A stretch of 18,835 nt of DNA from a virus (Duplodnaviria > Heunggongvirae > Uroviricota > Caudoviricetes). The notes under the pieces were generated by a model. That model had not been told where the DNA came from. It saw only the letters and a program-made list of their open reading frames with translations, and ran no database searches. The stretch lies in the IMG/VR virus record IMGVR_UViG_2529292922_000019. One strand, written 5' to 3'. The translations under genes were made by a program, and so were the position numbers. Shown piece by piece: positions 1 to 15,533 of this stretch. How positions within the stretch are numbered: position 1 is the first letter of the stretch; every line of letters starts with the position of its first letter.

Positions 1-1131
1 TCAAATGACCAGTTTTTTCCATTCCTTACCGCGTGCGTCGTTGTAAATATCGGTCATTTTTTGATTCGAATGGCCTAGCAAAATTTTGGTATCAACCCCC
101 TGCTCTCTGAACAATCGCTCTGATAAAGATCTCTGCTCATGGAAAGAGGGAGGGGTGCCATTAGCACGCCAGTTGTAATCCACAGAATCCCGGGCTTTTT
201 TAAATGCAACGGTTAATGTTGCTGGCTTAACCATCCCGCCGCGCTTAGCTGTCCCTTTCGCGTGATGGTGGTGCAATAGCCACGGACTAAGAACGCAATC
301 GCGGCAGGATGACACCACATCATCCAGGGTGAGATTTAATTTATCGCAACGCAGAGCCAGAGGGATGGCAATCCGGGTTCCTGTTTTTTGCTGTTCGACA
401 TGAAGATAACCATCCCGGATATCCGAAAATTGCATTTTGCAAATATCTGAAAGGCGCTGGCCTGTCATCAGTGCCAGCAGCATACCGCGCTGTAAAAAGT
501 AACCATCCTTTTCCGCTGCGTTATAAATCATCATCCACTCATCAAAAGTCAGTCGCTGTCTTGATATCCGCACCTGCGGTTTTTTTGCCGATTCTGCAGG
601 GTTAAAGCCTGGCGGGACATCGCCCGTTTGCTGAGCTTCCCGGAAAACATCGATCAGTACTTTCCTGAAAATTTGTCCCATTCTGTTATGTCCTCTGGCC
701 TTGTACTCTTCCAGTACTGATACCACATCTTTTACGGTTATGGCATCTAACGGTCTGGTGCCAAAACGTTCATCAAATACCCTGAGAGGGGCCGCTTTCT
801 GTTTCAGCGTGTTGAGTTTGATCTCGCCGTTTTCATATCTTTCCTGTTGAATTTTTCTGTAATTATTCAGAAAAATGGTAACGGTTGATGAACCGCCGGT
901 ATCACTAATAATTTTCTCCTGCAGACTGAGCATTTGTTCCATTTGCTGCCGGGCAAGACGGCTGTTCGCTTCTGCTGCAATAGTTTCTGCCAGTTTCTGG
1001 TCAATACTGCCGAGACCGTGATTTTTGCCTGTTATGGGATGCCTGTAACGCCAGTAAACTTTGTTATTTCTTTTGTCAAAATACGGAGATAATCCCGGAA
1101 CATCGGTTTTATATTTTCGCGGGCGCGCCAT
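1..1131 (-). CDS. int: Lambda-family tyrosine integrase (site-specific recombinase)
   Basis: 376-aa ORF, stop codon at 1..3 on - strand. C-terminal region shows the HxxR ... LLGHS ... TDIY arrangement typical of tyrosine recombinase catalytic residues. Position next to xis at the prophage end. Confidence 0.85.
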   Translation of the reverse strand: MARPRKYKTDVPGLSPYFDKRNNKVYWRYRHPITGKNHGLGSIDQKLAETIAAEANSRLARQQMEQMLSLQEKIISDTGGSSTVTIFLNNYRKIQQERYENGEIKLNTLKQKAAPLRVFDERFGTRPLDAITVKDVVSVLEEYKARGHNRMGQIFRKVLIDVFREAQQTGDVPPGFNPAESAKKPQVRISRQRLTFDEWMMIYNAAEKDGYFLQRGMLLALMTGQRLSDICKMQFSDIRDGYLHVEQQKTGTRIAIPLALRCDKLNLTLDDVVSSCRDCVLSPWLLHHHHAKGTAKRGGMVKPATLTVAFKKARDSVDYNWRANGTPPSFHEQRSLSERLFREQGVDTKILLGHSNQKMTDIYNDARGKEWKKLVI

Positions 1132-1357
1132 CTTCCAGTATCCTCTTCAAAGCAGGGTGATCTGTGGCGATCACCTCCGGCTTGTTTACCATTCCGACAA
1201 AGCGAGCTTGCGGATCCACTCGCCAGCGTCTTCCAACTTTTTTGGGGAGAGGAAATATCATTCCGGCTTTAGCGTATTTACTTAACGTACTCGGAGTTGG
1301 GACCGGTTCACTGAATTCCTCTTTTGCCCACTCAGTGAGCAGAATAAGTCTTGCCAT
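1109..1357 (-). CDS. xis: Excisionase-like small DNA-binding protein (Xis/DUF1233-like)
   Basis: 82-aa ORF immediately upstream of int, 3' end overlapping the int start by 23 nt (classic int-xis overlap). Small basic protein with motif KYAKAGMIFPLPKKVGRRWRV. Family assignment from memory only. Confidence 0.6.
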   Translation of the reverse strand: MARLILLTEWAKEEFSEPVPTPSTLSKYAKAGMIFPLPKKVGRRWRVDPQARFVGMVNKPEVIATDHPALKRILEDGAPAKI

Positions 1358-1421
1358 GAGCGTCGTTCGCTAATCATGGTCGCCGCCACTATAGCTGGTG
1401 GGCAACGACCGGGGTTGAACA

Positions 1422-3893
1422 TTAAAAATCAGCCTGATTCGGGATCAGTTTTTGCCAGATAACTGAAACGTATTTTGCTTGGTAACGGGCGTCATCAAGT
1501 GCATTATGGCGCTCACCTTCGAATGGAATAGCCGTTCTGGCATCGAAGTCTATGGCTTTCCCCAGCTCAACGATTGTGCGTACATCGCGATCGTTGTAGT
1601 AACGCCACGGGCAGGGGATCCCCTGCCGTTCGTATGAACGGCGCAAAATCGTGTTGTCGAAGTTGGCTCCATTTCCCCAGACCTGAACAAAAAATTCACC
1701 GGAGTTTTCGTCGATAAATTCCCGCAATTGTAACAGTGCATCATCTAACGGGATTTCATCGGTCATAATGGCAGATTGCGCTTCGCGTGATTGCTTAAGC
1801 CACCATTTAATGGTGTCCCGATCAATGACCCCGCCAGCAGTTTCCAGATCGATAGTCTTACTAAATTCCGGTCCCATATCTCCGGTTTGCGGATCGAAAA
1901 ATATTGCACCTATTGAGATGATCGGGGCATCAGGATTTTTTCCCATGGTTTCAAGGTCGATCATTAGATGGTCACACGTCCTGCTGGTGGATGTGATTTC
2001 GTGATGACCGTTCACCTTAATTGAGTGATCTGCCGTCTCGCCAGTTTCATTATCGCTATCGTGATGCTGATTGCCGTCAGTGTTCTCCTTGTGTGGATGT
2101 TCAGCGCCTTCCATTTCCTCCGGATCATCTTCCTGAACTTCAACCTGATACTCTTCATCGAATGTTTCCTGGTATGTTGCGTCGCCCATCACCGCGCCAC
2201 AATCAGGGCAGTTGCCGCCGCCGGTCTGACCGCAGGCGGTGCAGACTTTTTCCACTTCCTGTTGCGCCACTGGTTCAGGCTGTTTCGTTTCTGGCTCGTT
2301 TTGTAACGCATTTGGGCTGTTTTGTTCCGCTTTCTGGCCGTTCTGTTCCGTTTCTTGCTGGTTCTGATTCACTGAATCGCGGGTTTCAATCCCCTTCACC
2401 CATTTCGGATCATTCTGGTCGCTAATCCCTGCAACAAATTCTCCGCGAGAGGCAGCAAGCAACTTATCGGCGTCAGGCTGGCTGATATTGGCTGCCTGCA
2501 TAATTTTGTTTACTTCGTCAGCGGTAACTTTTACCGGCTCTGGTTGTGCGGTCGTGTCAGATGCACCAGTATTTTGTTGTGAACCTGAGTATGTACTGTT
2601 TTTGCGGGCGAAATATTCTTCTTTCGTGATTTCAGTAGCCCCGGCAGCCAGCGCCTTATCCAGACCAGAAAGTTTGTTTGCGCGACCGTATTTTTCGCCA
2701 TCCTTGTCGGTGAAGAGGAAGTAGAACGGCCCTTCACGCTCTACAGATGGTTCGACTTCCACTTTGCATTCGGTTTTTTCGTTGTCCGGAATTGCCGTTT
2801 CCACTGCATCAGTTTCTGGTACTGGCGACGAGAGAGTATCAGTTGCGCTCTGATTTCTTCCTTCATCTTCAAACACGCCCTTTGTAGTCAGGTATTCAGT
2901 AATGTATTTGTTCAGTGCCACAGGGTCTTTGTGAATGTCGATCGGACGTTCACGGACAAGGCCAAAAATAGTCTGGCGGTCGTAGCGAAGGGCATCAGGC
3001 TGTTTGCGCATTGATGCCGAGATACGCTTCCAGTCTTCGCGGTCGTTGTCGATAACTTCATTTTTTGCCCAGCGATGGATGCTGCCGTCAATGTTTCCGG
3101 CATCCACATCACCAGGCCAGAGAGCGTAGGCCAGTTCGTCATCCAGTGTTTTCCATGTCTGCTTGTATTCGCGATGAATGGCAGCAATGACCGGGCTGAT
3201 TTTTCCTGTTGAATTTTCAGTGTGCTGTTGATTGGCTCTGGCGCGGGCGAGATCAACAACAGACGTGTATTTTCCGGTTTCCTTGCGTTCACCTTCGCGA
3301 CGTTTTTTCCAGATGCGCATCTCTGCCTGAATTTCGGGCCATTTGGCACCAGGCTTACATTTATGCTTAACCCACCCGATGGCATGCAGCTTAAGCTCCG
3401 GATACATGGCGTTAACTTCTGGCATTTTCATCAACGCTTCAACGATATGTCCGTCGAATGTTGCCATGTCTTCCTGCAACAATTCCTGTGCGCTAATAAC
3501 CATATCAACGGTGATGTTTTCACATGTGTCGAACTTAACCATGACAGCGTTCGGTACTTCAGGGGCCAGCTTGTCAAAAGTGACGTTCATCGGATCTGAT
3601 TCAGTCTCAACCGGGACAAAGGAAGCAGACTCCTCATCCCAGCGGTTTTCCTGCATATATTCAGCATCCCAGGAATCGAGGGCAGGGCGGGGTATGCCGG
3701 GTTTATCCTCACAGACAATAAATTTATAAGCGCAGTCCTGAGCTGCAGGGAATTGCTCCAGAAATTGCCAATGAAATTTTGCGCGTGCGCGACGCTCATC
3801 ACCAGCTTCAATGGCAGTGGCCACCGCAACAGCGCTATCTTCTTTTATGGCCTGTTCATCAGGAATAGCAGCGCAAATAAAGACTTTACTCAT
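1422..3893 (-). CDS. Large prophage exonuclease with C-terminal DEDDh (DnaQ-like) 3'-5' exonuclease domain; commonly annotated exodeoxyribonuclease VIII-like in lambdoid prophages
   Basis: 823-aa intact ORF. C-terminus carries Exo motifs (IDLETMG; WGNGANFDNTIL; HNALDDARY). Central Q/N/E-rich low-complexity linker and a CxxC-x7-CxxC zinc-ribbon-like motif. Sits in the exo/bet position of a lambdoid early-left operon. Confidence 0.75.
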   Translation of the reverse strand: MSKVFICAAIPDEQAIKEDSAVAVATAIEAGDERRARAKFHWQFLEQFPAAQDCAYKFIVCEDKPGIPRPALDSWDAEYMQENRWDEESASFVPVETESDPMNVTFDKLAPEVPNAVMVKFDTCENITVDMVISAQELLQEDMATFDGHIVEALMKMPEVNAMYPELKLHAIGWVKHKCKPGAKWPEIQAEMRIWKKRREGERKETGKYTSVVDLARARANQQHTENSTGKISPVIAAIHREYKQTWKTLDDELAYALWPGDVDAGNIDGSIHRWAKNEVIDNDREDWKRISASMRKQPDALRYDRQTIFGLVRERPIDIHKDPVALNKYITEYLTTKGVFEDEGRNQSATDTLSSPVPETDAVETAIPDNEKTECKVEVEPSVEREGPFYFLFTDKDGEKYGRANKLSGLDKALAAGATEITKEEYFARKNSTYSGSQQNTGASDTTAQPEPVKVTADEVNKIMQAANISQPDADKLLAASRGEFVAGISDQNDPKWVKGIETRDSVNQNQQETEQNGQKAEQNSPNALQNEPETKQPEPVAQQEVEKVCTACGQTGGGNCPDCGAVMGDATYQETFDEEYQVEVQEDDPEEMEGAEHPHKENTDGNQHHDSDNETGETADHSIKVNGHHEITSTSRTCDHLMIDLETMGKNPDAPIISIGAIFFDPQTGDMGPEFSKTIDLETAGGVIDRDTIKWWLKQSREAQSAIMTDEIPLDDALLQLREFIDENSGEFFVQVWGNGANFDNTILRRSYERQGIPCPWRYYNDRDVRTIVELGKAIDFDARTAIPFEGERHNALDDARYQAKYVSVIWQKLIPNQADF

Positions 3894-3985
3894 TTTGTTT
3901 TACCTCATTACAGATTTAAGGGTGAACAAATCCCTGCCATTGCTGGCATATAAGAATGAAACCGGATGTTTATTACGGAACTGTT

Positions 3986-4177
3986 TTAAAGACCTGCCGG
4001 GATTTCGTTATTATCCTGGTGAATAACTTTATCGACCGGGTAACAGTTACCGGGAATTTTCTGTTCGGTTGCTGCAGTCACACACTCCTGCATTGTCCTG
4101 TGAACACTGACTGCAATATCAACTGGCTCTCCGGAAACAAGAAAAACTGTCAGAACAAGTGCAAATGCTGTATTCAT
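3986..4177 (-). CDS. ydfD: YdfD-like small lysis/toxic peptide with N-terminal hydrophobic segment (63 aa)
   Basis: Internal ATG of ORF 3986..4231 gives MNTAFALVLTVFLVSGEPVD..., recalled as Qin YdfD. Start overlaps the dicB stop as ATGA (translational coupling). Alternative upstream starts exist at 4186 and 4231. Confidence 0.55.
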   Translation of the reverse strand: MNTAFALVLTVFLVSGEPVDIAVSVHRTMQECVTAATEQKIPGNCYPVDKVIHQDNNEIPAGL

Positions 4178-4362
4178 TGCCAGCATCCTTTTTGTATCGG
4201 ACGTAAACGGGCCAGCATTGAAAGAATGCATATTTTATTTAATAGCTCCCGTTCGTGTTTTCTCTTGTTAATGGCATCTTCAGTAAATACAGGGTTACTG
4301 ATAGTGACACCAATTTCAAAACAACCTTCAGACGTATTAACGTTTGGTAATAACGTTTCCAT
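4174..4362 (-). CDS. dicB: Cell division inhibitor DicB (62 aa)
   Basis: Internal Met of ORF 4174..4467 yields METLLPNVNTSEGCFEIGVTISNPVFTEDAINKRK...KGCWQ, matching remembered Qin DicB almost residue for residue. Lies directly downstream of DicF as in the dicB operon. Confidence 0.8.
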   Translation of the reverse strand: METLLPNVNTSEGCFEIGVTISNPVFTEDAINKRKHERELLNKICILSMLARLRPIQKGCWQ

Positions 4363-4533
4363 TATCGCGTCCTCAACAATGAATTTTGTGATGTGGTGCC
4401 TGGTGCCTCCAGGTGACGTTAACCAGTTAACAATTAACGCCGGATACAGAGAATCCACCCATAACACTGTTTTTGGTTTTAACTGTTCCGCGTGCGCTCA
4501 GCCGCATTCACCGCATCACAAAATTCACTTTAA

Positions 4534-4589
4534 AAACGGCGGCAGAGCAGTCACGGAGTAAAACTGATACCGCCAAACGTCACCAGAAA
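4534..4589 (-). ncRNA. dicF: DicF small regulatory RNA (ftsZ-targeting sRNA) with intrinsic terminator hairpin
   Basis: Reverse complement of 4537..4589 reads TTTCTGGTGACGTTTGGCGGTATCAGTTTTACTCCGTGACTGCTCTGCCGCC, matching the remembered 53-nt DicF sequence, followed by a T-run (A-run 4532..4536 on + strand). Located immediately upstream of dicB. Confidence 0.8.
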
Positions 4590-4920
4590 ATTGATAACAG
4601 AGGGCGTTGCAGCGGGGTTGTCGCTTAAGCGTATGGTCAACCTGACAACCCGGTGTCCTCAACGGGGAAGGAATAACCCCGCCATACTTACCGCCGCGCC
4701 ATTTCGCGGAGTGCCACAACCGGAAGCGCACGGTCGAACTAAATTTAACGACACCGTACAGAGAGACCAATTTCGCCGTGCGCTTTCGCGTTATGCCCTG
4801 ACTTTTCAGGGACATATCCTTTCAGTAAACTGTCAGTGCCGGATGTTCACCCGTGTCCGGCGCACGCACTCCACCTGACCCGTGGAGAACTCCTTAATTA
4901 CCAACCCTCAGGAGGGTGAA

Positions 4921-5178
4921 ATGGATAAAAAGCAAATTGAGGCCCTGCAATCTATTATTGAAAAACAAGATGAAGCTATCAGGATTCTTTCATATCGCAC
5001 TGATATGATACTAAATATGCTTTCTGCATTAACGGCTGCGCTTGGTGGTACAAAAACAAACGTATACCGCGAAGTTGTTATTCAACAGATAGATAAATTT
5101 GAAAAACCATACCAGGTATTAATGCTCATCTTGCAGAACAAGAGAAAGACCATGCTCTTATGGCAATTTCTTCAGTAG
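4921..5178 (+). CDS. Hypothetical small helical protein (about 85 aa), antisense to the leftward early operon
   Basis: Strong SD (AGGAGG, 5-nt spacer) before ATG at 4921. AT-rich. 3' end overlaps the convergent 133-aa gene by 21 nt. No recognisable domain. Confidence 0.4.
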   Translation: MDKKQIEALQSIIEKQDEAIRILSYRTDMILNMLSALTAALGGTKTNVYREVVIQQIDKFEKPYQVLMLILQNKRKTMLLWQFLQ

Positions 5179-5559
5179 CTCTCCCGAAAGTTGAGTAGTT
5201 TTAATTGTTGTTTTGAAATAATCACTGCTTTCACATTTGAGTGATTTCATGGCAATCCAAATGCGGGCCTCTGTGCCTGCATTTGGTTCCAGTTGCTGTA
5301 GACGTTTTGCGTCTTCCAAAAGTAAGGCGATAATGTGTTTCAGCTTCTCATCATTTGCTTGATTCTTGTTTTCAGGCGAATTCTGTCCGCCGAATAGGCG
5401 CTTCTCTTCATACAGACCTATAAAGGCACGACGCACGTTACCGGATATAGTATCGATGGTTTCTTTTTCTACGGTACTCAGGTCAAGAGTCGCCAGTTGA
5501 GAGCGAACCACATTCGATGCCATTTCCTGGAATGGTACTGGTAAATCTTTAAATTCCAT
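5158..5559 (-). CDS. Hypothetical protein (about 133 aa, alpha-helical), second gene of the repressor-proximal leftward module
   Basis: ORF 5158..5571; preferred start ATG at 5559 preceded by GAGG with 6-nt spacing. The ORF-track start at 5571 lacks an SD and overlaps the upstream stop as TGATG. AT-rich. No recognised family. Confidence 0.5.
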   Translation of the reverse strand: MEFKDLPVPFQEMASNVVRSQLATLDLSTVEKETIDTISGNVRRAFIGLYEEKRLFGGQNSPENKNQANDEKLKHIIALLLEDAKRLQQLEPNAGTEARIWIAMKSLKCESSDYFKTTIKTTQLSGELLKKLP

Positions 5560-5570
5560 CGTCAACCTCA

Positions 5571-5723
5571 TCAGTCAGTGTTTCTGGTTAACCAGCGACG
5601 CGCGCCAGCTTCAGTTTTAAACGTTTTGCTTCTGGTATACGTCATCGCGGTAAACGTGCCGTCCTGGTTGGGGAACACGCCACATACCAGAGATTCGTTG
5701 TTGCCAAGATTGAGCATATCCAT
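5571..5723 (-). CDS. ydfA: YdfA-like (DUF1391-type) small protein, about 50 aa
   Basis: Internal ATG preceded by GAGG-N5. Product MDMLNLGNNESLVCGVFPNQDGTFTAMTYTRSKTFKTEAGARRWL resembles remembered Qin YdfA. First gene downstream of the leftward operator region. A longer 77-aa form starting at 5804 is possible. Confidence 0.5.
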   Translation of the reverse strand: MDMLNLGNNESLVCGVFPNQDGTFTAMTYTRSKTFKTEAGARRWLTRNTD

Positions 5724-5904
5724 GTTGACCTCATTTCCCCTTAACGCCGGGGTAGCGGAACAAAAACCTGCTGCATAGTTATTAAAGTTGAACCCTGCCG
5801 TCATGTTCTTACGCCTCGGGCTGGCTACTTAACCCCTGACCACTGCCTGGTAACTCGAAGTATTGCCCTGCATTCTGTGGGGCGGGGTGGGTTGGTATGA
5901 AAAG

Positions 5905-5950
5905 AAGGATACCCATAGGTATTTAAAAGGTAAATACCCATGGGTAAATT
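5905..5950 (-). promoter_or_regulatory. OL-like operator pair (TACC-N4-GGTA palindromes) overlapping a putative leftward early promoter
   Basis: Palindromes ATACCCATAGGTAT (5909..5922) and TACCCATGGGTA (5935..5946, perfect). On the - strand a -35 TTTACC (5948..5943) and -10 TAAATA (5925..5920) with a 17-bp spacer overlap these sites. Confidence 0.45.
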
Positions 5951-5988
5951 TTTGCGGGGTCTTAACTGGTGACTAGTTGTTTGGTGAG

Positions 5989-6407
5989 CTATGATGCGTT
6001 TTGTGCTTTCTTTTTACGGATTTCTTCGTAGATCATATTGTAATACTGTTTTTTCTCTTCAAGAGTTTTTAATAATTTATCCGCTTCACTTTCTGGCAGT
6101 TCGTCTAAGAGATCTAAAAAAATACGTTGTCGTGGCGTTAGAACCCTTGTTTCATAACTGGAGGCTGTGTTCGTTGATGATGAAACGATACCATCCATCC
6201 ATCCCCGGGGTAACCCAAAGGACTCTTCGATAATCTCCACCATATCATCAGCGATCCGTTTTTTCCCTTTTTCCCCTCTGGGTACAACATTCTTGATACA
6301 TAAGAAGGCTCGCGCCCGATCTTTCTGGCCACGTTAACCGCTTTACCATCGCATTTCTCATCACGAATTTTGATGAGTTGCTGTCGTCTAAATTCATATT
6401 TGTCCAT
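5989..6407 (-). pseudogene. DicA/cI-like HTH repressor, reading frame interrupted by a 1-nt deletion in a homopolymer (possibly a sequencing artefact)
   Basis: Two overlapping ORFs (6138..6407 with the HTH; 5989..6243 with a DicA-like C-terminus LTPRQRIFLDLLDELPESEADKLL). One extra T in the T6 run 6259..6264 would fuse them into a single protein of about 139 aa. Confidence 0.65.
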
Positions 6408-6425
6408 AGGTAAATAATAGATGCG

Positions 6426-6478
6426 ATTACCGCAAGGTAAACAACCTGTGGGTATTGACTTTTGTTTACCTGCGGGTG
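6426..6478. promoter_or_regulatory. OR-like operator cluster: three TACC-N4-GGTA-type sites between the repressor and cro-like genes
   Basis: TTACCGCAAGGTAA (6427..6440), AACCTGTGGGTA (6443..6454) and TTACCTGCGGGTG (6464..6476). A -35-like TTGACT lies at 6455..6460. Same half-site architecture as the sites at 5909..5946. Confidence 0.45.
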
Positions 6479-6507
6479 TTCTTTGCTGTGTTTACTAAGG
6501 AGTAGCT

Positions 6508-6789
6508 ATGGAAGAATTAAGAATATTTCTCAATTCTCTTTCGTCAGATGAACAGCGTATGTTTGCATGCGAGTGTGGTACCAGCATCGGTTATCTAAGA
6601 AAGGCATTGAGTAAAGGTCAAGTGTTAGGGGCATCGTTATGTGTCCTTATTGAGCGAGCCAGTAATGGTGAAGTTACACGTCAGCAACTAAGGCCTTTTG
6701 ATTGGATGAATATTTGGCCCGAGCTGGAAGATACCAAAACGTTAACACAACCACTTTCTAGGAGCTTGATTCATGAAAATCAAGCATGA
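6508..6789 (+). CDS. Cro-like / YdaS-family DNA-binding protein
   Basis: 93-aa ORF divergent from the repressor, SD AGGAG upstream. Pattern ...GTSIGYLRKALSKGQ...LRPFDWMNIWPEL resembles YdaS-family Cro analogues (recalled). Confidence 0.6.
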   Translation: MEELRIFLNSLSSDEQRMFACECGTSIGYLRKALSKGQVLGASLCVLIERASNGEVTRQQLRPFDWMNIWPELEDTKTLTQPLSRSLIHENQA

Positions 6790-7198
6790 ACACATCCGCA
6801 TGGCGATGAATGTCTGGGCGCATCCGGACGGCGAAAAAGTGCCGGCTGCGAAAATTACCAAAGCGTATTTCGAGCTGGGAATGACGTTCCCGGAACTGTA
6901 TGACGACAGCCATCCGGAAGCCCTGGCCCGTAATACCCAGAAAATTTTCCGTTGGCTGGATAAAGACACCCCTGATGCTGTTGAAAAAATGCAGGCTCTG
7001 TTACCGGCGATCGAAAAGGCGATGCCGCCTTTGCTGGTGGCCCGTATGCGCAGCCACAGTTCTGAATATTACCGTGAGATCGTCGAACGGAGGGATCGGC
7101 TGGTGAAGGATGTCGATGATTTTGTTGCGTCAGCGGTTGTTTTGTATGACCAGATGAATCGCGGCGGCCCGGCAGGGAATGCTGTGGTGATGCACTAA
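6773..7198 (+). CDS. YdaT-family protein (functional analogue of cII; toxic when derepressed in Rac)
   Basis: 141-aa ORF overlapping the cro-like gene end. N-terminus MKIKHEHIRMAMN...GMTFPELYDDSHPEALARNTQKIFRW matches remembered YdaT. Confidence 0.65.
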   Translation: MKIKHEHIRMAMNVWAHPDGEKVPAAKITKAYFELGMTFPELYDDSHPEALARNTQKIFRWLDKDTPDAVEKMQALLPAIEKAMPPLLVARMRSHSSEYYREIVERRDRLVKDVDDFVASAVVLYDQMNRGGPAGNAVVMH

Positions 7199-7220
7199 AA
7201 GCACGGTGTTCGGGGGTTTT

Positions 7221-8183
7221 ATGAGCAGCAAGCTTCATGGTCTTGTCTGGGAAGGGTGCGCCTTCACCGGCATGATCTTATCCAGGGTGGCGGTTATGGC
7301 CCGTCTTGCAGACTACAGCAATGACGAGGGCGTGTCATGGCCTGCCATTGAAACTATCCGGCGTCAGATCGGTGCAAGAAGTGAATCCACAGTGAAATCG
7401 GCTATTGCAGAACTGGCGAAAGAGGGCTGGCTGACGAAGGAAGAGCGTAAGGTCGGTGGGCGTAATGTAAGCAATATCTATCGGCTTAATGTGGAAAAAC
7501 TCGAAGCAGCTGCGGCGGCGGCGCGTGAGTCATATAAACCGAAAAGAAAAATTAGCCCGGCAAAAAATGACCCGTTAACAGTTGACCCGTCAAATATTGA
7601 CCCCTCAACGGTTGACCCGTCAAATTTTGATGGATCAACTGTTGATAAAAAACTGCCGATTAGGGGGGCGATGATTGACCCCGATCCGTCAGTATTAAAA
7701 CCTGATCCGTCAGATAAAAGATCTTCTTGTCCGGACGCTTCGCAACCGGACCCGCAGACGGCTGAACAGGATTTTTTAACCCGACACCCTGACGCGGTTG
7801 TGTTCAGTGCGAAAAAACGCCAGTGGGGAAGTCAGGAAGATTTGGTGTGCGCACAGTGGATCTGGGGACGAATCGTGAGTCTTTACGAGCAGGCGGCCAG
7901 CTATGATGGCGAGATCGCTAGACCGAAAGAACCCAACTGGACAGCATGGGCCAATGACGTTCGCACAATGCGGATGCTGGATGGCAGAACTCACAGACAA
8001 ATTTGTGAAATGTTTGGGCGTCTCCAGCGGGATTCGTTCTGGGTAAAAAACATCATGAGTCCGGCAAAACTCCGGGAAAAATGGGATGAACTGGTTATCC
8101 GCCTGGGGCGTTCGCCTGCGCAGCGTTGCGTGAATCACATTTCTGAACCGGACACTGAAATTCCGCCGGGCTTCAGGGGGTAA
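7221..8183 (+). CDS. Phage replication initiation protein (O-like; N-terminal winged-helix, internal iteron-encoded linker)
   Basis: ORF 7206..8183 (GTG); preferred ATG at 7221 with G-rich SD. N-terminal HTH-like segment. Contains the direct DNA repeats at 7567..7655 that encode repeated TVDPSN(I/F)D peptides, as in lambda O/ori. Confidence 0.6.
   Translation: MSSKLHGLVWEGCAFTGMILSRVAVMARLADYSNDEGVSWPAIETIRRQIGARSESTVKSAIAELAKEGWLTKEERKVGGRNVSNIYRLNVEKLEAAAAAARESYKPKRKISPAKNDPLTVDPSNIDPSTVDPSNFDGSTVDKKLPIRGAMIDPDPSVLKPDPSDKRSSCPDASQPDPQTAEQDFLTRHPDAVVFSAKKRQWGSQEDLVCAQWIWGRIVSLYEQAASYDGEIARPKEPNWTAWANDVRTMRMLDGRTHRQICEMFGRLQRDSFWVKNIMSPAKLREKWDELVIRLGRSPAQRCVNHISEPDTEIPPGFRG
7567..7655 (+). 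repeat. Iteron-like direct repeats inside the replication gene (putative origin)
   Basis: Four tandem copies of TTGACCC(G/C)T(C/T)AA at roughly 15-bp period (7567, 7582, 7597, 7612), followed by degenerate copies and an A-rich stretch. Further GATCCGTCAG repeats at 7686..7713. Confidence 0.5.
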
Positions 8184-8223
8184 GTGTTAATTTCTGGTCA
8201 TGAGGTAATTTTCAGGAGGGCTT

Positions 8224-8646
8224 GTGGCAAAAGTTTTTACACAAGAAGAGCGGGAAAAAATTAAAGGGCAGGTTGTTGAACTCGTACGCCAGAGTGGGCG
8301 CGAGACGTTACGACAACTGGAAACTAAAACTGGGGCAACAAGATATCTGATGAGCGTTCTGGCCAGAGAGCTGGTTGCCAGTGGCGATGTATACAACTCT
8401 GGTTACGGGTTATTCCCGTCTGAACAGGCGCGTAAGGACTGGCAAAATGCCCGTAAAAAGCTCTCAAGGGCAAAGCTGAAGAAACCATCTGCGGTTGATC
8501 CGGACCTTATCTGGTCATTACCTGACGGAGAAATACGTCGCTACGACAGGCGTCAGAACATAATCTGTCGCGAGTGCCGGAAGAGCGAAGCTATGCAGCG
8601 CGTACTGGCGTTTTATCAGGGGAATTTTGAGGAGGTGGTGCGGTGA
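8224..8646 (+). CDS. Hypothetical phage protein (140 aa)
   Basis: GTG start preceded by AGGAGG. Follows the replication gene in the same orientation. No recognisable domain. Confidence 0.5.
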   Translation: MAKVFTQEEREKIKGQVVELVRQSGRETLRQLETKTGATRYLMSVLARELVASGDVYNSGYGLFPSEQARKDWQNARKKLSRAKLKKPSAVDPDLIWSLPDGEIRRYDRRQNIICRECRKSEAMQRVLAFYQGNFEEVVR

Positions 8647-8889
8647 GTGAATCAAAATGCCAGGTTAATGGCAACAAGATAGAACCATGTGCAGCACTGG
8701 CAAAGTCCCTTGAGCGTGATGCTGAATACACGATGCGAAAAGGTCTGCTGATATACAAAATCTGAAATGAGAGTTTAACTCGCGGTCCTGATTTTGTGAT
8801 GTTGCGTTCCGGTGAATTTTCTAAATTACCAGTTCGGGTTTCATTTTGTCCGTTCTGTGGTGAAAGTCTGAAAACGTGGGAGAACAGAA

Positions 8890-9201
8890 ATGAATGAAAT
8901 TAAAGAAATACCAGTAGTACGTGATGAATATGGCTGCTGGACGCATCCTGAATATGAAAAATTCTGTGACGGTCGGGAATATATTTCAACGGAAGAGTTT
9001 AACGCCTGGATGGAGGAAAATAATCTTCAATACGTCCTCTGCTTCAGAGATGAAGGATGTGCTGACCTTGATGCGTGTGATGCTGATATTTCTGCATGGG
9101 AACCGGAACGACCAGAGGGCAATGGATGGTTTATTGGTTCAATACATGACACCGAAGATGGCCCGGTTTGTGTATGGCTGAGAAATAAGGTCGAAGCATA
9201 A
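8890..9201 (+). CDS. Hypothetical phage protein (103 aa, Cys/acidic-rich)
   Basis: ATG start with upstream GGGAGAA. Same orientation as the early-right operon. No recognised family. Confidence 0.5.
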   Translation: MNEIKEIPVVRDEYGCWTHPEYEKFCDGREYISTEEFNAWMEENNLQYVLCFRDEGCADLDACDADISAWEPERPEGNGWFIGSIHDTEDGPVCVWLRNKVEA

Positions 9202-9333
9202 AGGCTATAAACCGACTAACAACTAAATACTGAAGATTTAAATCAGAAACGATTTTTATTAAATCCTTAACCGGAGGGATTCCTGCACCCTCAAATCATC
9301 AGGAGGCCGCCCGAAAGGGCGGTGGAGATAATA

Positions 9334-9855
9334 ATGGGAATAACTAAAGAACGATTGTTGGAAATAGCAAACCTTAGTGATTGGGCATTAAGTGATGAGA
9401 GAATTGTTTCTCCTCATGCTTATGAGTCAGTTACAAGTATAGAAATAACAACAATGGCTAGAATGCTGCTTGGTTATTTCAAAATAGAAAATAAAAAACA
9501 GATGGATAGTAATGTTGATATATGTGAGATTTTAGACGATTGGGGGGCTTGGGTTGTGGCTGGTAATAGTTCTATTGATTGGCAGGAAATAGCTGATAAA
9601 TATAAAAATGTTGTTCCTCATGGTAAAAAATCACGTCGTCAGTGCAGCAATGATGAAGGGCGAATTATTGACATTAGTATCCTTAGGTTAGAAAGATATA
9701 AGCAACAAGAATATGAGTTAATTGTTGCTCATTTCGTGATTGGTTTATCTCTTCGTGCTATTGCAAAGCAACAAGGATGTTCAGATGGAACAATTCGTAA
9801 AAGATTGCAAAAAGCCTTAGGTTTTTTGACTGGATATATAGCAATTACCAGTTAA
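9334..9855 (+). CDS. HTH transcriptional regulator with C-terminal sigma-70 region-4/LuxR-like helix-turn-helix (possible late-gene regulator or cargo regulator)
   Basis: ORF 9322..9855; preferred ATG at 9334 with GGAG at 6-nt spacing. C-terminus YELIVAHFVIGLSLRAIAKQQGCSDGTIRKRLQKALGFL is a classic region-4-like HTH. AT-rich codon usage. Stop codon overlaps the stop of the convergent nuclease gene (TTAA 9852..9855). Confidence 0.55.
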   Translation: MGITKERLLEIANLSDWALSDERIVSPHAYESVTSIEITTMARMLLGYFKIENKKQMDSNVDICEILDDWGAWVVAGNSSIDWQEIADKYKNVVPHGKKSRRQCSNDEGRIIDISILRLERYKQQEYELIVAHFVIGLSLRAIAKQQGCSDGTIRKRLQKALGFLTGYIAITS

Positions 9856-10493
9856 GAGTCAGCGGTTTTTTTACCAGTGTAATGGTATAAGGATACTCCC
9901 ATGTGTCTTACATGATATGGAAGCGCTGTTGCTGGATGCTTTGTGATACTCTTAAAGCGGAGGGGAGAGCCTTCCGCTTCAATTTCTGCGTCCGAAACGG
10001 TCGTAGAGAAAAATTCTTTCCATTCATTGAATTTTACTGCTGATTTGTCAGACTTTATATAAATTAGAATTCCTCCATGATCGTCACGTGACGTACCCGT
10101 GCCGTAACGTTCGGTTAGCTGAATCCAGCCATTATGAATAGATTTGGGGCCTCTCCATAATTTTGCTTCACCGATCCATTCGAATTTTCCGAATTGATGT
10201 TTAACTAATAAATCAACGTGACCGCCATGTTGAGTATCATGTTCAACATCATAAAACCTACCTTTCAGGAAATTTTTGATCGACGCTGTTAGCTCGTCCT
10301 CTCCCCACTTAGCATCTTGATAGAAGTGTTTGTCATTTTCTAAATTCTGAATAGCGTCGTCTAAATCTTCATAGAGTTGCTTTACAAAAATATTTTTGTC
10401 TGCAGCTAATTTTCTTTGAACCATTCCCCTAAATTCAGGATCCATTCTAATTAATGATTGAAGGTCTGCAGTACAGATGTTTACATCACTCAT
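9852..10493 (-). CDS. PD-(D/E)xK nuclease-fold protein (about 213 aa), last gene of the AT-rich operon
   Basis: ORF 9852..10556; likely start MSDVN at 10493, overlapping the upstream gene stop by 8 nt (ATGAGTGA). Motif ...DVEHD...GGHVDLLVK-x10-EWIGEAKLW fits the D...(D/E)xK arrangement of restriction-endonuclease-like nucleases. Confidence 0.55.
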   Translation of the reverse strand: MSDVNICTADLQSLIRMDPEFRGMVQRKLAADKNIFVKQLYEDLDDAIQNLENDKHFYQDAKWGEDELTASIKNFLKGRFYDVEHDTQHGGHVDLLVKHQFGKFEWIGEAKLWRGPKSIHNGWIQLTERYGTGTSRDDHGGILIYIKSDKSAVKFNEWKEFFSTTVSDAEIEAEGSPLRFKSITKHPATALPYHVRHMGVSLYHYTGKKTADS

Positions 10494-10914
10494 GCAGACT
10501 CTCCAAAAGACTCGAAGGAGTAAAGTATGGATAAAGATACTGGCTAAAATTATCAACCAATTCGCCAGTTTCTGGATGGTAAAAACTTCCTGTGTCTAAA
10601 GCATAGGAAATAAGATCATCTTCAACTGGTATTGGTTCTTCCGTTAAATTATCAATGTATTGAAAATGCATATCCAATAGATGTGCTTTATAGCTAGATA
10701 AATAATCAGTTGCTTTTATTAGCAGGATATAGTCATCTTTCGTATCAGTTAGATAGGTTAAACCATTGATAAGGGTTTTGTATGTAAAGTGATTGATATT
10801 TTTAGCATCTTTACTAACCAGAAAAAGAAAAAGATCACGACACACACTGCGAACAGGATCATTAAAATCCTGCTCTATTTGCGTGATAATGTCGTGATAT
10901 ATACTCTTTTTCAT
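10486..10914 (-). CDS. Hypothetical acidic protein (142 aa), middle gene of the AT-rich operon
   Basis: ATG at 10914 overlaps the upstream frame stop as ATGA. C-terminus overlaps the downstream nuclease start. Acidic, Tyr-rich, no recognised domain. Confidence 0.5.
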   Translation of the reverse strand: MKKSIYHDIITQIEQDFNDPVRSVCRDLFLFLVSKDAKNINHFTYKTLINGLTYLTDTKDDYILLIKATDYLSSYKAHLLDMHFQYIDNLTEEPIPVEDDLISYALDTGSFYHPETGELVDNFSQYLYPYFTPSSLLESLHE

Positions 10915-11201
10915 TTATGGCCTGATGATCTCGCTCTTCTTTTCTCTTCACAGGACTTAACAGAATCCAATATTTTTTCAACAATAAATATAATCGAATC
11001 AATGTTGTTACAGTTCTTCGCAATTGCTTCATGCAACCTAATTCTAGGATTATCAAGCATTGTCCTTTTTCCTGGTAATATTAACTCTACTGATAAAATA
11101 TGTGAAGAACTTTGTGGTAAATCCCAAATTTTTCCCAACTTAAACTTTGTCAATATTGGGCTTGCGGACTCTCCACTATGATGGTAAACATCTTGACGCA
11201 A
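10911..11201 (-). CDS. Hypothetical ORF; probably the C-terminal continuation of the upstream 222-aa gene rather than an independent gene
   Basis: The reading frame is open from 11363 down to 10911 with no ATG or SD (first candidate start is TTG at 11201). It overlaps the stop of the upstream gene, whose frame differs by one base at an A6 run (T6 on + strand, 11352..11357). Confidence 0.35.
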   Translation of the reverse strand: MRQDVYHHSGESASPILTKFKLGKIWDLPQSSSHILSVELILPGKRTMLDNPRIRLHEAIAKNCNNIDSIIFIVEKILDSVKSCEEKRRARSSGHK

Positions 11202-11332
11202 ACACTTTTGACTTGGTTTGAGTTTTAAAGAACTTGTATTGCCATCTGAGGTGATAAAAGATACATGAGAAATTCTGCCATCTACTTTTTCGTAAAGATC
11301 TTGTATTGAACCAAATAATTCAAGAGGATTGT

Positions 11333-12001
11333 TTAAAATAACGCCAGCTTCTTTTTTATAAATTTAGCCACAAGGTATTGTTGAGGCTGTGATTCACTTC
11401 TTGGAAGGATAGATAAATCAATCGTAAGAATTAATATTTTTTCTGCAGGCATTAGCATGATGGTATTAAAGCATTGCGTGACTTGGCGTGTTTTGCATTT
11501 TATTTCTCCACCATTAGCACGTAATTCCATACCCGCATCGCTAAGATGTGTTGGGTCAAGCTCTATCACTTCAGTGTAATACGCTTTGGATAAAAAAACA
11601 GCAGTGTCAATTTGTTTATCACGAATGATATCTTGACGTAGTTCAGCAAAATGCAGCTCAGTATCAGCAACTAACAGCTCCTCTCTGGATAAAGGAATTG
11701 GGTATTTTTCTGAGAAGGGGCTATTGTCCTTTTTCTGATTTGTGAAAATTGTTTGTAATTTTGCTACGTCTTCATCGGTGATTCTATAAATAGAAAGTAA
11801 TCGATTCCCGCTAAAAATTAAACCTTTCCAGAAATCGTCGATTCTGTCTTTTAGGTCGGGATTATGCTGAACTACACTATTTACACGTTCAATAAAAAGG
11901 GGTAATCCTTGGGCCGTTACACCCAGTGATGAACCAAGAAGCTTACGGGTGTTGCGCCAGCCAAAGCGTGAATTGATGTTTTTTACTGTTTGCTCAAGCA
12001 T
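11333..12001 (-). CDS. Hypothetical protein (222 aa), first gene of the AT-rich operon; possible HEPN-like Rx6H motif
   Basis: ATG at 12001 preceded by AAGGAAG (the ORF-track GTG at 12007 is less likely). Contains ERVNSVVQH (R-x6-H). AT-rich. If the homopolymer at 11352..11357 is corrected it would extend to about 365 aa. Confidence 0.5.
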   Translation of the reverse strand: MLEQTVKNINSRFGWRNTRKLLGSSLGVTAQGLPLFIERVNSVVQHNPDLKDRIDDFWKGLIFSGNRLLSIYRITDEDVAKLQTIFTNQKKDNSPFSEKYPIPLSREELLVADTELHFAELRQDIIRDKQIDTAVFLSKAYYTEVIELDPTHLSDAGMELRANGGEIKCKTRQVTQCFNTIMLMPAEKILILTIDLSILPRSESQPQQYLVAKFIKKKLALF

Positions 12002-12347
12002 TAACACTTCCTTAATTTTCCCTTAACAATTTAGGGTGCTAAACTTTTTTGCGCAGTTTACATAAAAAAATAGTGCGTACGCAAAAACTATCTAACATGA
12101 TGAGCTTTAACCGGGAAATTTGTATATGTTGTGAGCATAAAGTTGGCTGAGAAATCTAAAACGGGTAGAATGACTGCGGGTGCTTGAGGCTATCTGTCTC
12201 AGGCATGAACACCAAAAGGCAGATAGAGAAAAGCCCCAGTTAACATTACGCGTCCGGCAAGACGCTTAACATTAATCTGAGGCCATATCTATGCTCTACA
12301 CACGTAGGTTAGCCTCTTACGTGCCGAAAGGCAAGGAGAAGCAGGCT

Positions 12348-12503
12348 ATGAAGCAGCAAAAGGCGATGTTAATCGCCCTGATCGTCATCTGTTTAACCGT
12401 CATAATGACGGCACTGGTAACGAGGAAAGACCTCTGCGAGGTACGAATCCGAACCGGCCAGACGGAGGTCGCTGTCTTCACAGCTTACGAACCTGAGGAG
12501 TAA
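12348..12503 (+). CDS. hokD: Hok/Gef-family type I toxin (51 aa), HokD/RelF-like
   Basis: MKQQKAMLIALIVICLTVIMTALVTRKDLCEVRIRTGQTEVAVFTAYEPEE, near-identical to remembered HokD. AAGGAG SD upstream. An in-frame upstream ATG at 12291 gives a 70-aa extended ORF. Confidence 0.85.
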   Translation: MKQQKAMLIALIVICLTVIMTALVTRKDLCEVRIRTGQTEVAVFTAYEPEE

Positions 12504-12571
12504 GAGACCAGGCGGGGGAGAATCCCTCGCCACCTCTGATGTGTCAGGCATCCTCAACGCACCCGCACTTA

Positions 12572-12596
12572 ACCCGCTTCGGCGGGTTTTGTTTTT
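12572..12596 (+). terminator. Rho-independent terminator downstream of hok
   Basis: Hairpin CCCGC-TTCG-GCGGG (12573..12586) followed by TTTTGTTTTT. Confidence 0.55.
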
Positions 12597-12668
12597 CCTG
12601 GCATTCTGGTTTACAATTCGCACGCCAGCCTGAACAACTGGCACCTGCTGCGCCAGCAGAGACAACCG

Positions 12669-12947
12669 ATGGCGCACGATACCAAATTACACAATTCTGA
12701 TGATTCTGCCGTCTTTGCCAGCAGGCACGGGCGGCGTTCCCGCACTTTCAAATCTGACTGGTTCCAGCATCCCCCATGCACTGAAGAACAGGCCGAGTGG
12801 CTAATTCAGTGCTACCGCAGACACGGATACGAGATTAAGAAAGCCCTCAGCCTCGATTATCGTCACTGGATAATCTCCGTCAGGCTTCCTTACTCCGAAC
12901 GACCACCGCGTCCGTCCCGCACATTCCAGCAACGCATCTGGAGGTAA
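12669..12947 (+). CDS. Hypothetical protein (92 aa) in the position occupied by rem in Qin
   Basis: ORF with ATG start immediately upstream of the DUF968 gene. Identity with Rem not verifiable from memory. Confidence 0.45.
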   Translation: MAHDTKLHNSDDSAVFASRHGRRSRTFKSDWFQHPPCTEEQAEWLIQCYRRHGYEIKKALSLDYRHWIISVRLPYSERPPRPSRTFQQRIWR

Positions 12948-12948
12948 C

Positions 12949-13998
12949 GTGCGGGTATTACTTCGACCTGTTCTGGTACCGGAACTCGGGCTGGTGATCG
13001 TTAAGCCGGGCCGTGAATCCATGCCGGTATTCCACAATACCCGGGTACTGGTGGAGCCGGAACCGAAAAGCATGCGTAATCTGCCGTCCGGGGTCGTTCC
13101 TGCCGTTCGCCAGCCGCTGGCGGAGGATAAATCATTACTGCCATTTTTCAGCGACGAACGAGTGATTCGTGCTGCTGGTGGCGCTGGCGCATTGTCTGAC
13201 TGGTTACTGCGCCATGTTAAATCCTGCCAGTGGCCACACGGTGATTATCACCACAGTGAAACCGTCATTCACCGTTATGGTACCGGCGCAATGGTGTTGT
13301 GCTGGCACTGCGACAACCAGCTGCGCGACCAGACCTCCGAATCACTCGGGCAACTTGCTCACCAAAACCTGTCAGCATGGATGATTGACGTCATACGCCA
13401 TGCAATGAATGGCTCGCAGGAACGGGAATTATCGCTGGCTGAATTATCCTGGTGGGCGGTCCGCAATCAGGTGGCGGACGCGCTACCGGAAGCGGTATTA
13501 CGTCGTTCGCTGGGGTTGCGTGCGGAAAAAATCCGCTCAATGTACCGTGAAAGCGACATCGTACCGGGAGAGCAGACCGCCACCAGCATACTGAAACAGC
13601 GCACAAAAAATCTTGCGCCGCTGCCTCACGCCCACCAGCAACAGAACCCACCACAGGAAAAGACGGTGGTCAGCATTGCCGTTGATCCTGAGTCTCCGGA
13701 ATCTTTCATGAAACGACCTAAACGTCGCCGCTGGGTTAACGAGAAATACACACGCTGGGTGAAGACACAGCCGTGTGCGTGTTGTGGTAAGCCAGCCGAC
13801 GATCCCCATCACCTGATTGGTCATGGTCAGGGCGGAATGGGGACAAAATCTCACGATATTTTCACGCTACCGCTGTGTCGGGAGCATCACAACGAGCTTC
13901 ATGCGGATCCGCTGACGTTCGAAGAAAAGCATGGTTCTCAGGTTGATTTAATTTTTCGTTTTCTTGATCACGCCTTTGCAACTGGCGTGCTTGGGTAA
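12949..13998 (+). CDS. ydfU: DUF968 / YdfU-like protein with C-terminal Cys/His (HNH-like) motif
   Basis: 349-aa ORF, GTG start after GGAGG. C-terminal CACCGKPADDPHHLIGHGQGG...LCREHHNELH. Same length and gene context as remembered Qin YdfU. Confidence 0.6.
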   Translation: MRVLLRPVLVPELGLVIVKPGRESMPVFHNTRVLVEPEPKSMRNLPSGVVPAVRQPLAEDKSLLPFFSDERVIRAAGGAGALSDWLLRHVKSCQWPHGDYHHSETVIHRYGTGAMVLCWHCDNQLRDQTSESLGQLAHQNLSAWMIDVIRHAMNGSQERELSLAELSWWAVRNQVADALPEAVLRRSLGLRAEKIRSMYRESDIVPGEQTATSILKQRTKNLAPLPHAHQQQNPPQEKTVVSIAVDPESPESFMKRPKRRRWVNEKYTRWVKTQPCACCGKPADDPHHLIGHGQGGMGTKSHDIFTLPLCREHHNELHADPLTFEEKHGSQVDLIFRFLDHAFATGVLG

Positions 13999-14010
13999 AA
14001 GAGGTGACTG

Positions 14011-14370
14011 ATGCTCATAGATTTGGTTTTACCTTACCCGCCGACGGTGAACACTTACTGGCGACGCCGTGGCAGCACATATTTTGTATCAAAAGTCGGT
14101 GAGCGTTATCGCCGTGATGTGGCGCTTATTGTTCGCCAGCAGCAACTGAAATTAAACCTGTCCGGAAGGCCGGCAATAGAAATTATTGCAGAGCCACCGG
14201 ATAAGCGCCGTCGTGACCTGGACAATATCCTGAAGGCACCACTGGATGTACTGACGCATGCGGGGCTGCTCATAGACGACGAGCAGTTTGATGAAATTAA
14301 TATTGTGCGCGGTCAGCTTGTTCCTGGTGGGCGGTTGGGGATAAAAATCACAGAACTGGAGTATGCATGA
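14011..14370 (+). CDS. rusA: RusA Holliday-junction resolvase
   Basis: 119-aa ORF with GAGG SD. Motif PPDKRRRDLDNILKAPLDVLTHAGLLIDDEQ and overall pattern match remembered RusA. Typical position just upstream of Q. Confidence 0.85.
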   Translation: MLIDLVLPYPPTVNTYWRRRGSTYFVSKVGERYRRDVALIVRQQQLKLNLSGRPAIEIIAEPPDKRRRDLDNILKAPLDVLTHAGLLIDDEQFDEINIVRGQLVPGGRLGIKITELEYA

Positions 14371-15056
14371 ATAACCAGTATTTACAGTTTGTTCGTGAGC
14401 AACTCATGATTGCCACCGCCGATTTGAGTGGATCAACAAAAGGGCAGCTTGAGGCCTGGCAGGAGAATGCCATGTTTGATACAGGGCGTTACAGGCGTAA
14501 AAAAATCCGGTACCGCGATGAAGTGACTGGAAAAATGATAACGCGGGATAATCCACCAATCCCGGGAAAGCAATCGCTGGCGAAGGGGGCGTCAATTCCT
14601 CTCGTCAGTCCGGTTGAGTTTTTGACATCATCGTGGCGGCGGGCTGTTCTGTCTCTTGAAGAACATCATAAAGCCTGGTTGTTGTGGTGTTACAGCGGGA
14701 GTATTTGTTGGGAATATCAGATCGCGATAACACAGTGGGCGTGGAATGAATTTAATACTCAATCCGGTACCAGAAAAATTGCTGGGAAAACGCAGGAACG
14801 CCAGAAAAAATTAATCTGGCTGGCGGCGCAGGCAGTAAAAGCAGAACTTTTTGGTGGGGAAGGTTATGAATATCAGGAGCTGGCATTACTGGCGGGAGTG
14901 ACAACTAAAAACTGGTCCAAAACATTTACTCGTCACTGGGTTGCAATGAAACACATTTTTCACCGACTGGATAGTGAGGCTTTATTATTTGTAATGAGAA
15001 CACGTTCAAAACAAAAGGCGGCATTTTCAAAGCAAAGTGTTGCAAAAGTAGATTGA
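14367..15056 (+). CDS. Putative late antiterminator Q-like protein
   Basis: 229-aa ORF overlapping the rusA stop (ATGA). Position between rusA and a terminator/tRNA cluster is the canonical Q slot. Family assignment by context, not by motif. Confidence 0.55.
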   Translation: MNNQYLQFVREQLMIATADLSGSTKGQLEAWQENAMFDTGRYRRKKIRYRDEVTGKMITRDNPPIPGKQSLAKGASIPLVSPVEFLTSSWRRAVLSLEEHHKAWLLWCYSGSICWEYQIAITQWAWNEFNTQSGTRKIAGKTQERQKKLIWLAAQAVKAELFGGEGYEYQELALLAGVTTKNWSKTFTRHWVAMKHIFHRLDSEALLFVMRTRSKQKAAFSKQSVAKVD

Positions 15057-15104
15057 AAGGCATATATTTCATGCAAATCTGATATTTTGCCGATTTTGTA
15101 CGTG

Positions 15105-15137
15105 ATGGCAAAATCAAACAAAACCCGCCCACAAGCG
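15105..15137 (+). terminator. Rho-independent terminator after the Q-like gene
   Basis: Stem CCCGC (15114..15118) / GCGGG (15125..15129) with 6-nt loop, followed by T7 and preceded by an A-run (potentially bidirectional). Confidence 0.6.
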
Positions 15138-15213
15138 GGTTTTTTTGTGCCACTTATCTCGGATAGACATGGTGAATGCGCTGGTGGAGGAGATAAGGGT
15201 GATTTTTGTATGC

Positions 15214-15242
15214 TTGCAACATTGATTTCGTAACGTTATTAT
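15214..15242 (+). promoter_or_regulatory. Sigma-70-type promoter upstream of the tRNA cluster (possible pR'-like late promoter)
   Basis: -35 TTGCAA (15214..15219), 17-bp spacer, -10 TATTAT (15237..15242), about 10 nt before the first tRNA. Confidence 0.45.
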
Positions 15243-15251
15243 CCTGCGCCC

Positions 15252-15327
15252 GGCCCTTTAGCTCAGTGGTGAGAGCGAGCGACTCATAATCGCCAGGTCG
15301 CTGGTTCAAATCCAGCAAGGGCCACCA
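15252..15327 (+). tRNA. tRNA-Ile2 (anticodon CAU, lysidine type), ileX/ileZ-like, CCA encoded
   Basis: Cloverleaf folds by hand: acceptor GGCCCTT/AAGGGCC, anticodon loop CTCATAA, T-loop TTCAAAT. Near-identical to remembered E. coli ileX. Confidence 0.85.
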
Positions 15328-15328
15328 A

Positions 15329-15404
15329 CCGCCACTAGCCATCAGGAAAGAGCGTCAACCCTTTAAGTTGAGTGTGCGAGGTTCGAGTCCCCGGTGGTGG
15401 TCCA
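15329..15404 (+). tRNA. Atypical tRNA-like gene (anticodon loop CCTTTAA; weak D-stem); possibly a degenerate Arg/Lys-type tRNA
   Basis: Acceptor CCGCCAC/GTGGTGG, anticodon stem TCAAC/GTTGA, T-arm GTTCGAGTC, CCA encoded. Position 33 is C rather than U and the D-stem has only two clean pairs. Confidence 0.45.
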
Positions 15405-15417
15405 TTATCGGTATTCT

Positions 15418-15491: not shown

Positions 15492-15507
15492 CTACACTTA
15501 TTTTCCC

Positions 15508-15533
15508 GGCTCGCTTTTGCGGGCCTTTTTTTT
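15508..15533 (+). terminator. Rho-independent terminator after the tRNA cluster
   Basis: Stem GGCTCGC (15508..15514) / GCGGGCC (15519..15525) with TTTT loop, followed by T8. Confidence 0.6.

Follow-up and report, generated by a model that had tools for sequence, protein, structure and literature searches.

The window, namely the whole stretch of 18,835 nucleotides that was analysed, almost certainly carries an intact dicBF cassette (DicF, DicB, and YdfD) within the early-left operon of an ompW-integrated lambdoid prophage of the Escherichia coli E2348/69 type, and the cassette is expected to work by a mechanism like that of K-12. An earlier reading of the letters alone, made without database searches (hereafter the sequence-only reading), had placed a DicF-DicB-YdfD module at positions 3986-4589. 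These limits turned out to be exact, with DicF, dicB, and ydfD all encoded on the minus strand, and the identification of all three was confirmed by matches that passed the Rfam, Pfam, and NCBIfam cut-offs and by near-identity to K-12. The identity, integrity, and arrangement of these genes, as well as their distribution, were established by direct observation. The cassette and its immediate surroundings consist of the following features.

3935-3948, minus strand: weak terminator-like hairpin 3′ of ydfD (hairpin scan; identical in K-12)
3986-4177, minus strand: ydfD, 63-aa DUF1482 putative lysis peptide (PF07358)
4174-4362, minus strand: dicB, predicted 62-aa cell-division inhibitor with GAGGA 5′ of the ATG (Pfam DicB, NCBIfam NF049927)
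4537-4589, minus strand: DicF small RNA of 53 nt, terminator hairpin included (Rfam RF00039)
4590-4906, minus strand: non-coding leader and DicF precursor region (approximately 95% identical to K-12 and to phage Tritos)

A cmscan search matched RF00039 to positions 4537-4588 of the minus strand with a score of 72.5 bits against a gathering threshold of 48 (E = 1.4e-14), in which model positions 1-52 of 52 were covered and no non-canonical pairs were flagged. The RNA was the same as K-12 dicF at 52 of 53 nt, the sole change (C in K-12 to G) being located at the last base, which precedes the U-run (UUUUU at 4532-4536, 3′ of the hairpin). The predicted fold of the 3′ hairpin with the U5 tract had an energy of -16.6 kcal/mol, with a z-score of only -1.36 against shuffled sequences. 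DicF is situated inside the early-left operon, and its spacer to dicB is 174 nt, the same length as in K-12. When pairing with ftsZ mRNA (-60 to +30) was predicted using RNAduplex, the duplex spanned the ftsZ ribosome-binding site, and 32 of 500 shuffled DicF sequences scored equally well; since the duplex energy was thus not distinct from those of the shuffles, the predicted pairing is based on the sequence identity to K-12 DicF, the RNA that has been examined by experiment (PMC5069750). The RefSeq annotation of E2348/69 holds no ncRNA feature for this full-score DicF (positions 16638-16690 of the NC_011601.1 locus, corresponding to 4537-4589 of the window).

Upstream of DicF, the likeness of the leader to K-12 and Tritos breaks off sharply at position 4906. 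By homology, the leader would hold both the RNase III site from which the 190-nt species arises and, at the 5′ end of DicF, the RNase E site, processing by these two enzymes having been demonstrated in K-12 only (PMC10448788). A 96-aa open reading frame overlapping DicF and the leader (4525-4815, minus strand) was discarded as a gene because three stop codons break the same frame in K-12.

DicB matched Pfam PF05358 over residues 1-62 of 62 (E = 1.7e-37; 127.4 bits against a cut-off of 27) and NCBIfam NF049927 with 132.7 bits (cut-off, 100). It was identical to K-12 DicB at 55 of 62 residues (89%); four of the seven differing residues are located within the last eight, and the changes may have an effect. 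Meanwhile, YdfD matched PF07358 (DUF1482) with 88 bits (cut-off, 25), was identical to the K-12 protein at 59 of 63 residues (94%), and, as read directly from the sequence, contains the N-terminal hydrophobic segment AFALVLTVFLVSG. The junction of the two genes reads TGGCAATGAAT, in which the TGA of dicB and the ATG of ydfD overlap as ATGA, exactly as the sequence-only reading had described. Based on the degree of identity to the K-12 proteins, this DicB would be expected to block division in a MinC-dependent and ZipA-targeted manner (PMC6832061), and this YdfD would probably cause lysis via inhibition of IspG (PMC8835842). The interval between ydfD and the next gene is 92 nt and includes the weak hairpin listed above; in K-12, the longest transcript detected stops 3′ of ydfD (PMC10448788).

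In the same orientation, the cassette is followed by a complete lambdoid int-xis-exo arm, in which the integrase, excisionase, and exonuclease are all present in full length.

1-1131, minus strand: int, lambda-type tyrosine integrase of 376 aa (Arm-DNA-bind_1 and Phage_integrase)
1109-1357, minus strand: xis, excisionase of 82 aa (Pfam Exc, 1.3e-07; annotated as an excisionase in E2348/69)
1422-3893, minus strand: exonuclease of 823 aa, full length (phrog_2082 over residues 1-823 of 823)

The claim that these three genes are full length was thus verified by the phrog_2082 match and the Pfam domains, and the integrase carries both the arm-binding domain and the complete catalytic domain. In the exonuclease, an Rv2179c-like DEDD 3′-5′ exonuclease domain (PF16473, 226 bits) was detected at the C-terminus (residues 642-813), and residues 1-640 are without a Pfam domain. 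The protein fell far below the cut-off of the RecE/exodeoxyribonuclease VIII equivalog NF007259 (272.6 bits against 1269), and only its middle region was aligned. As judged by this profile, the 823-aa exonuclease is not RecE, the resemblance being limited to that middle region. Such 823-aa exonucleases are often named exoVIII or RecE in phage records.

As for the origin of the window, positions 1-15589 were aligned to the genome of EPEC O127:H6 E2348/69 (NC_011601.1, from 1427475) with 99.85% identity. The differences amounted to 19 substitutions and four 1-nt deletions, and all four indels were one-base losses in A/T homopolymers. The 801-nt region including the module was 100% identical in E2348/69 and several other genomes; in these, the corresponding genes are annotated as ‘cell division inhibition protein DicB’ and ‘DUF1482 family protein’, so that a chance match is of no concern. 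In addition, ompW adjoins the integrase gene in E2348/69. By its sequence, then, the window represents either the lambdoid prophage that sits at ompW in E2348/69 or one very closely related to it.

In E2348/69, the prophage begins on the left with int, xis, the exonuclease, ydfD, dicB, (DicF), unknown ORFs, and a DUF1391/ydfA-like gene, continues in the centre with the repressor, a cro/YdaS-like gene, a YdaT-like gene, and the replication genes, and ends on the right with Q, hokD, DUF968, RusA, Q, tRNAs, IS, and late genes. Because IS elements separate the Q/tRNA region from the late genes, it is not evident that the entire prophage is intact. The sequence-only reading had suggested a more complete version of this prophage type. 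This holds for the left arm only; such an arm is commonplace, being found in 1651 of 5426 complete E. coli genomes and in several isolated phages, and the prophage bears IS elements.

Several further observations were made along the right-hand part of the window. A 2917-bp IS66-family segment (15590-18506; a 523-aa DDE transposase, TnpB_IS66, and an HTH ORF) has taken the place of 32 bp of E2348/69 immediately beside the end of ISEc13, in the stretch that separates the tRNAs from the late genes. One of its ends starts with GTAAGCG and the other is not an inverted copy of that end, implying a truncated or nested IS. The one-base homopolymer deletions at 5102, 11352, and 12592 alter an antisense 92-aa ORF and a 363-aa hypothetical gene, and one of them is located in the interval that separates hokD from the gene after it. 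At 12178-12503, a hokD/sok type I toxin-antitoxin locus was recognized (Rfam sok, 117 bits; Pfam HOK_GEF, 4.3e-23), its hokD being 98% identical to that of Qin. Downstream of Q, a tRNA cluster at 15252-15492 comprises a CAU tRNA (Ile in RefSeq) and Arg-UCU, both supported by Rfam and ARAGORN, together with a third ‘Lys-UUU’ tRNA (15329-15404) that was called by ARAGORN only and is probably degenerate. The prophage has two distinct Q-type antiterminator genes (9322-9855 and 14367-15056). Between them, a minus-strand three-gene cluster (9852-12007) had no match in Pfam, NCBIfam, or PADLOC and may represent a moron or an insertion of a defence-like kind. A PADLOC scan of DicB, the unknown ORFs of the operon, and this cluster gave nothing usable.

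The early-left operon starts, next to the repressor gene, with the following two genes upstream of the leader.

5158-5571, minus strand: 137-aa ORF in place of the ydfB-ydfC of Qin and Tritos (phrog_1363, 1.1e-44)
5571-5723, minus strand: ydfA-like DUF1391 gene, the first of the operon (PF07151, 97 bits; 89% DNA identity to K-12 ydfA)

The 137-aa ORF had no Pfam match and no homology to K-12 or Tritos. It belongs to a mosaic replacement at 4907-5591, where the homology to Qin and Tritos halts at 4906 and restarts at 5592; the same segment holds the antisense 92-aa ORF (phrog_18692; 4921-5199 in E2348/69 terms). A sigma-70 consensus scan of the PL-like region found no promoter with at least 9 of 12 matching positions. 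A candidate with only 8 of 12 was picked out by eye (TTTACC at 5934-5929, a 17-nt spacer, and TATCCT at 5911-5906), and, overall, promoter-like and terminator-like sites were just as numerous as expected from shuffled sequences.

The region that would control this operon contains a putative repressor gene and three copies of one palindrome.

5909-5922 and 5934-5947: two copies of the palindrome ATACCCAYRGGTAT, candidate OL, overlapping the candidate promoter
5989-6407, minus strand: putative repressor gene analogous to CI/DicA, with a -1 frameshift that splits it at 6259 (phrog_5736)
6442-6455: third copy of ATACCCAYRGGTAT, candidate OR, between the repressor and cro-like genes

The undivided repressor of E2348/69 (139 aa) matched phrog_5736 (‘transcriptional regulator’) from end to end (6.4e-70) and was 40% identical to the CI of Tritos and 21% identical to DicA. 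It fell short of the NCBIfam DicA model NF007257, with 24.5 bits against a cut-off of 101 and only its C-terminal 50 residues aligned, and its divergent neighbours are YdaS- and YdaT-like by Pfam, as in Rac. On these comparisons, the repressor is DicA/CI-like by position and not a member of the DicA family, and the immunity is of a different type. The palindrome ATACCCAYRGGTAT gave five strand-matches against 0.2 expected, a number reached by no shuffle. Both OL-like copies together form a 16-bp hairpin 3′ of the repressor gene that is terminator-like in look, in which two of the substitutions relative to E2348/69 are located (5939 within one of the palindromes and 5929 between the two). The homology of the transcribed region to Tritos starts at 5892, just downstream of the OL-like sites, as would be expected of a promoter and operator that form part of the immunity-specific segment. 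Of the earlier claim that the cassette is under repressor control, the control itself is suggested by synteny and by the operator-like palindromes on both sides of the repressor gene, but identity of the repressor to DicA amounts to no more than 21% and its ORF is split here.

This split results from a run of six A residues at 6259 in place of seven, which leaves an N-terminal product of 89 aa and a C-terminal ORF of 84 aa. If the frameshift were real, the cassette would be present but, for want of its own repressor, would have escaped normal control. The dicBF operon would then be unrepressed, with constitutive or stochastic derepression of the early-left operon, unless another resident prophage of the same immunity held it off. 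Besides the -1 deletion itself, which divides the 139-aa ORF, this reading is favoured by an independent 2-kb Logan contig (ERR4562137) that encodes the same 89-aa product at 98.4% DNA identity, and by the clustering of the substitutions relative to E2348/69, three near the OL-like and three near the OR-like sites. On the other hand, the Logan contig bears further homopolymer indels of its own, and the deletion was absent from the best 15 of the 822 complete genomes having the same immunity region, whose matches span 642 nt against the 641-nt query and hence include the extra base. DicB and YdaS/YdaT are toxic, and losing a repressor of the DicA or RacR type is thus expected to be toxic as well. 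Considering that all four indels relative to E2348/69 are homopolymeric, that those 15 genomes lack the deletion, and that the Logan contig is error-prone, the frameshift is most probably a sequencing error caused by homopolymer under-calling, and a true escape from control appears improbable. Still less credence is given to the idea that the A7 tract is prone to slippage and that A6, the allele present both here and in an independent public assembly, represents a genuine phase-variable loss of the repressor, by which DicF, DicB, and YdfD would be switched on in a subpopulation; were it correct, spontaneous induction of dicBp, of which K-12 has so far provided a phenotypic description only, would have a genetic route.

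There is very little probability that the cassette has lost its function and is a remnant in decay, as assumed for many genes of cryptic prophages. The IS elements that part the Q/tRNA region from the late genes and the cryptic state of the reference context, K-12 Qin, would fit this idea, but none of the three genes is truncated, ribosome-binding sites and coupled translation are in place, DicF is identical at 52 of 53 nt to an experimentally active RNA, and thousands of genomes, as well as viable phages, have kept the cassette with at least 90% identity.

For an intact cassette with an intact repressor, we propose the following mode of action, in which all activities, the promoter, and the repressor control are derived from how closely the cassette matches that of Qin in K-12. 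A PL-like promoter beside the repressor gene would drive a polycistronic transcript of the ydfA-like gene, the 137-aa ORF, the leader, DicF, dicB, and ydfD, and in the lysogen it would be held off by the prophage repressor. Upon derepression, RNase III and RNase E would excise DicF from the leader; the DicF hairpin and U-run would serve as a 3′ end, and part of the transcripts would read through into dicB-ydfD. DicF would then pair with ftsZ mRNA (and also with manX, xylR, and pykA) to block translation, while DicB would bind MinC and bring it to the septum, so that formation of the Z-ring would be blocked. The DicB-MinC complex may also inhibit ManXYZ, by which DNA injection by lambda-like phages would be prevented. 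YdfD, presumably coupled translationally to dicB via the ATGA overlap, would inhibit IspG and cause lysis at high dose.

Of 5426 complete E. coli genomes, 4662 had matches to the module, the copy number per genome being two at the median and nine at most, and the int-to-DicF arm (window 1-4900) was covered to at least 80% in 1651 of the 5426. Among a collection of phages, 59 records matched, eight of them over at least 80% of the queried 1-kb region, and cover of the full region was seen in the isolated phages Tritos, PhiR42_1, vB_EcoS-640R1, and others. The match to mEp460_ev081 extended over 91% of the query (3900-4900; matched at 3900-4806) with 98% identity. The remark made in 2016 that DicB and DicF were missing from approximately 2,000 sequenced phage genomes (PMC5069750) is therefore outdated given the 59 matching records, which imply that the dicBF cassette belongs to the normal early gene set of active lambdoid phages and is not a peculiarity of cryptic prophages. 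The presence of the cassette in an active phage was pointed out earlier for mEp460_ev081, a functional phage that carries dicB, dicF, dicAC, and rem (PMC10448788).

The dicBF cassette is among the best-studied host-manipulating prophage modules. The targets of DicF and how widely dicBF occurs in prophages of E. coli (PMC5069750), the repression by DicA and the processing of the dicBF transcript by RNase III/E (PMC10448788), the inhibition of ManXYZ by DicB-MinC with the resulting phage exclusion (PMC6832061), and the inhibition of IspG by YdfD (PMC8835842) have all been described. The module is thus already known and extremely common, its operon, control, and a functional carrier phage having been published. 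This exact copy had been annotated earlier in the EPEC reference genome, apart from the DicF RNA, and its occurrence here carries little weight as a discovery.

Among known systems, the closest relatives are the ompW prophage of E2348/69 and the ‘PPompW’ prophages of STEC, with which the gene order from int to the tRNAs is shared; E2348/69 differs in having 32 bp beside ISEc13 where the 2.9-kb IS66-family segment lies here. The isolated temperate lambdoid phage Tritos shares positions 1414-4906 at 94% identity, together with the order of exo (2472 nt, as here), ydfD, dicB, an annotated DicF, ydf genes, CI, and Cro. It differs in possessing another integrase and xis, in retaining ydfB/ydfC (in the order ydfC/B/A), and in its CI, which is only 40% identical to the repressor here.

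The DicA-repressed dicBF operon of K-12 Qin (ydfABC-dicF-dicB-ydfD) shares the leader, the 174-nt spacer, the ATGA overlap, and the ydfA-like first gene, as well as a repressor upstream in the same orientation and a divergent cro-like gene. In the present prophage, ydfB-ydfC is swapped for the 137-aa ORF and the antisense 92-aa ORF, and YdaS/YdaT-like genes stand in place of dicC-ydfX, in keeping with another immunity type. The Rem homologue that adjoins hokD in Qin is absent here; when a Rem-type antirepressor was sought at the syntenic position beside hokD (12669-12947), no similarity to K-12 Rem was found. A BLAST comparison of the window with Qin gave a 1783-nt block (window 3127-4906) with 94.6% identity and unchanged spacing, in which the identities of the cassette genes were upheld and the genes were undisrupted. 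This homology stops at window position 3127, corresponding to position 20845 of the Qin locus, which is the first base of IS2E; the K-12 ydfE therefore corresponds to the first 255 or so codons of the exonuclease gene. The interruption of the K-12 locus after ydfD by an IS and gene fragments, which the sequence-only reading had put forward, was seen to consist of the ydfE pseudogene, the IS2E remnant with insD7, and the intQ pseudogene, whereas the corresponding exo, xis, and int genes are all intact in the prophage described here.
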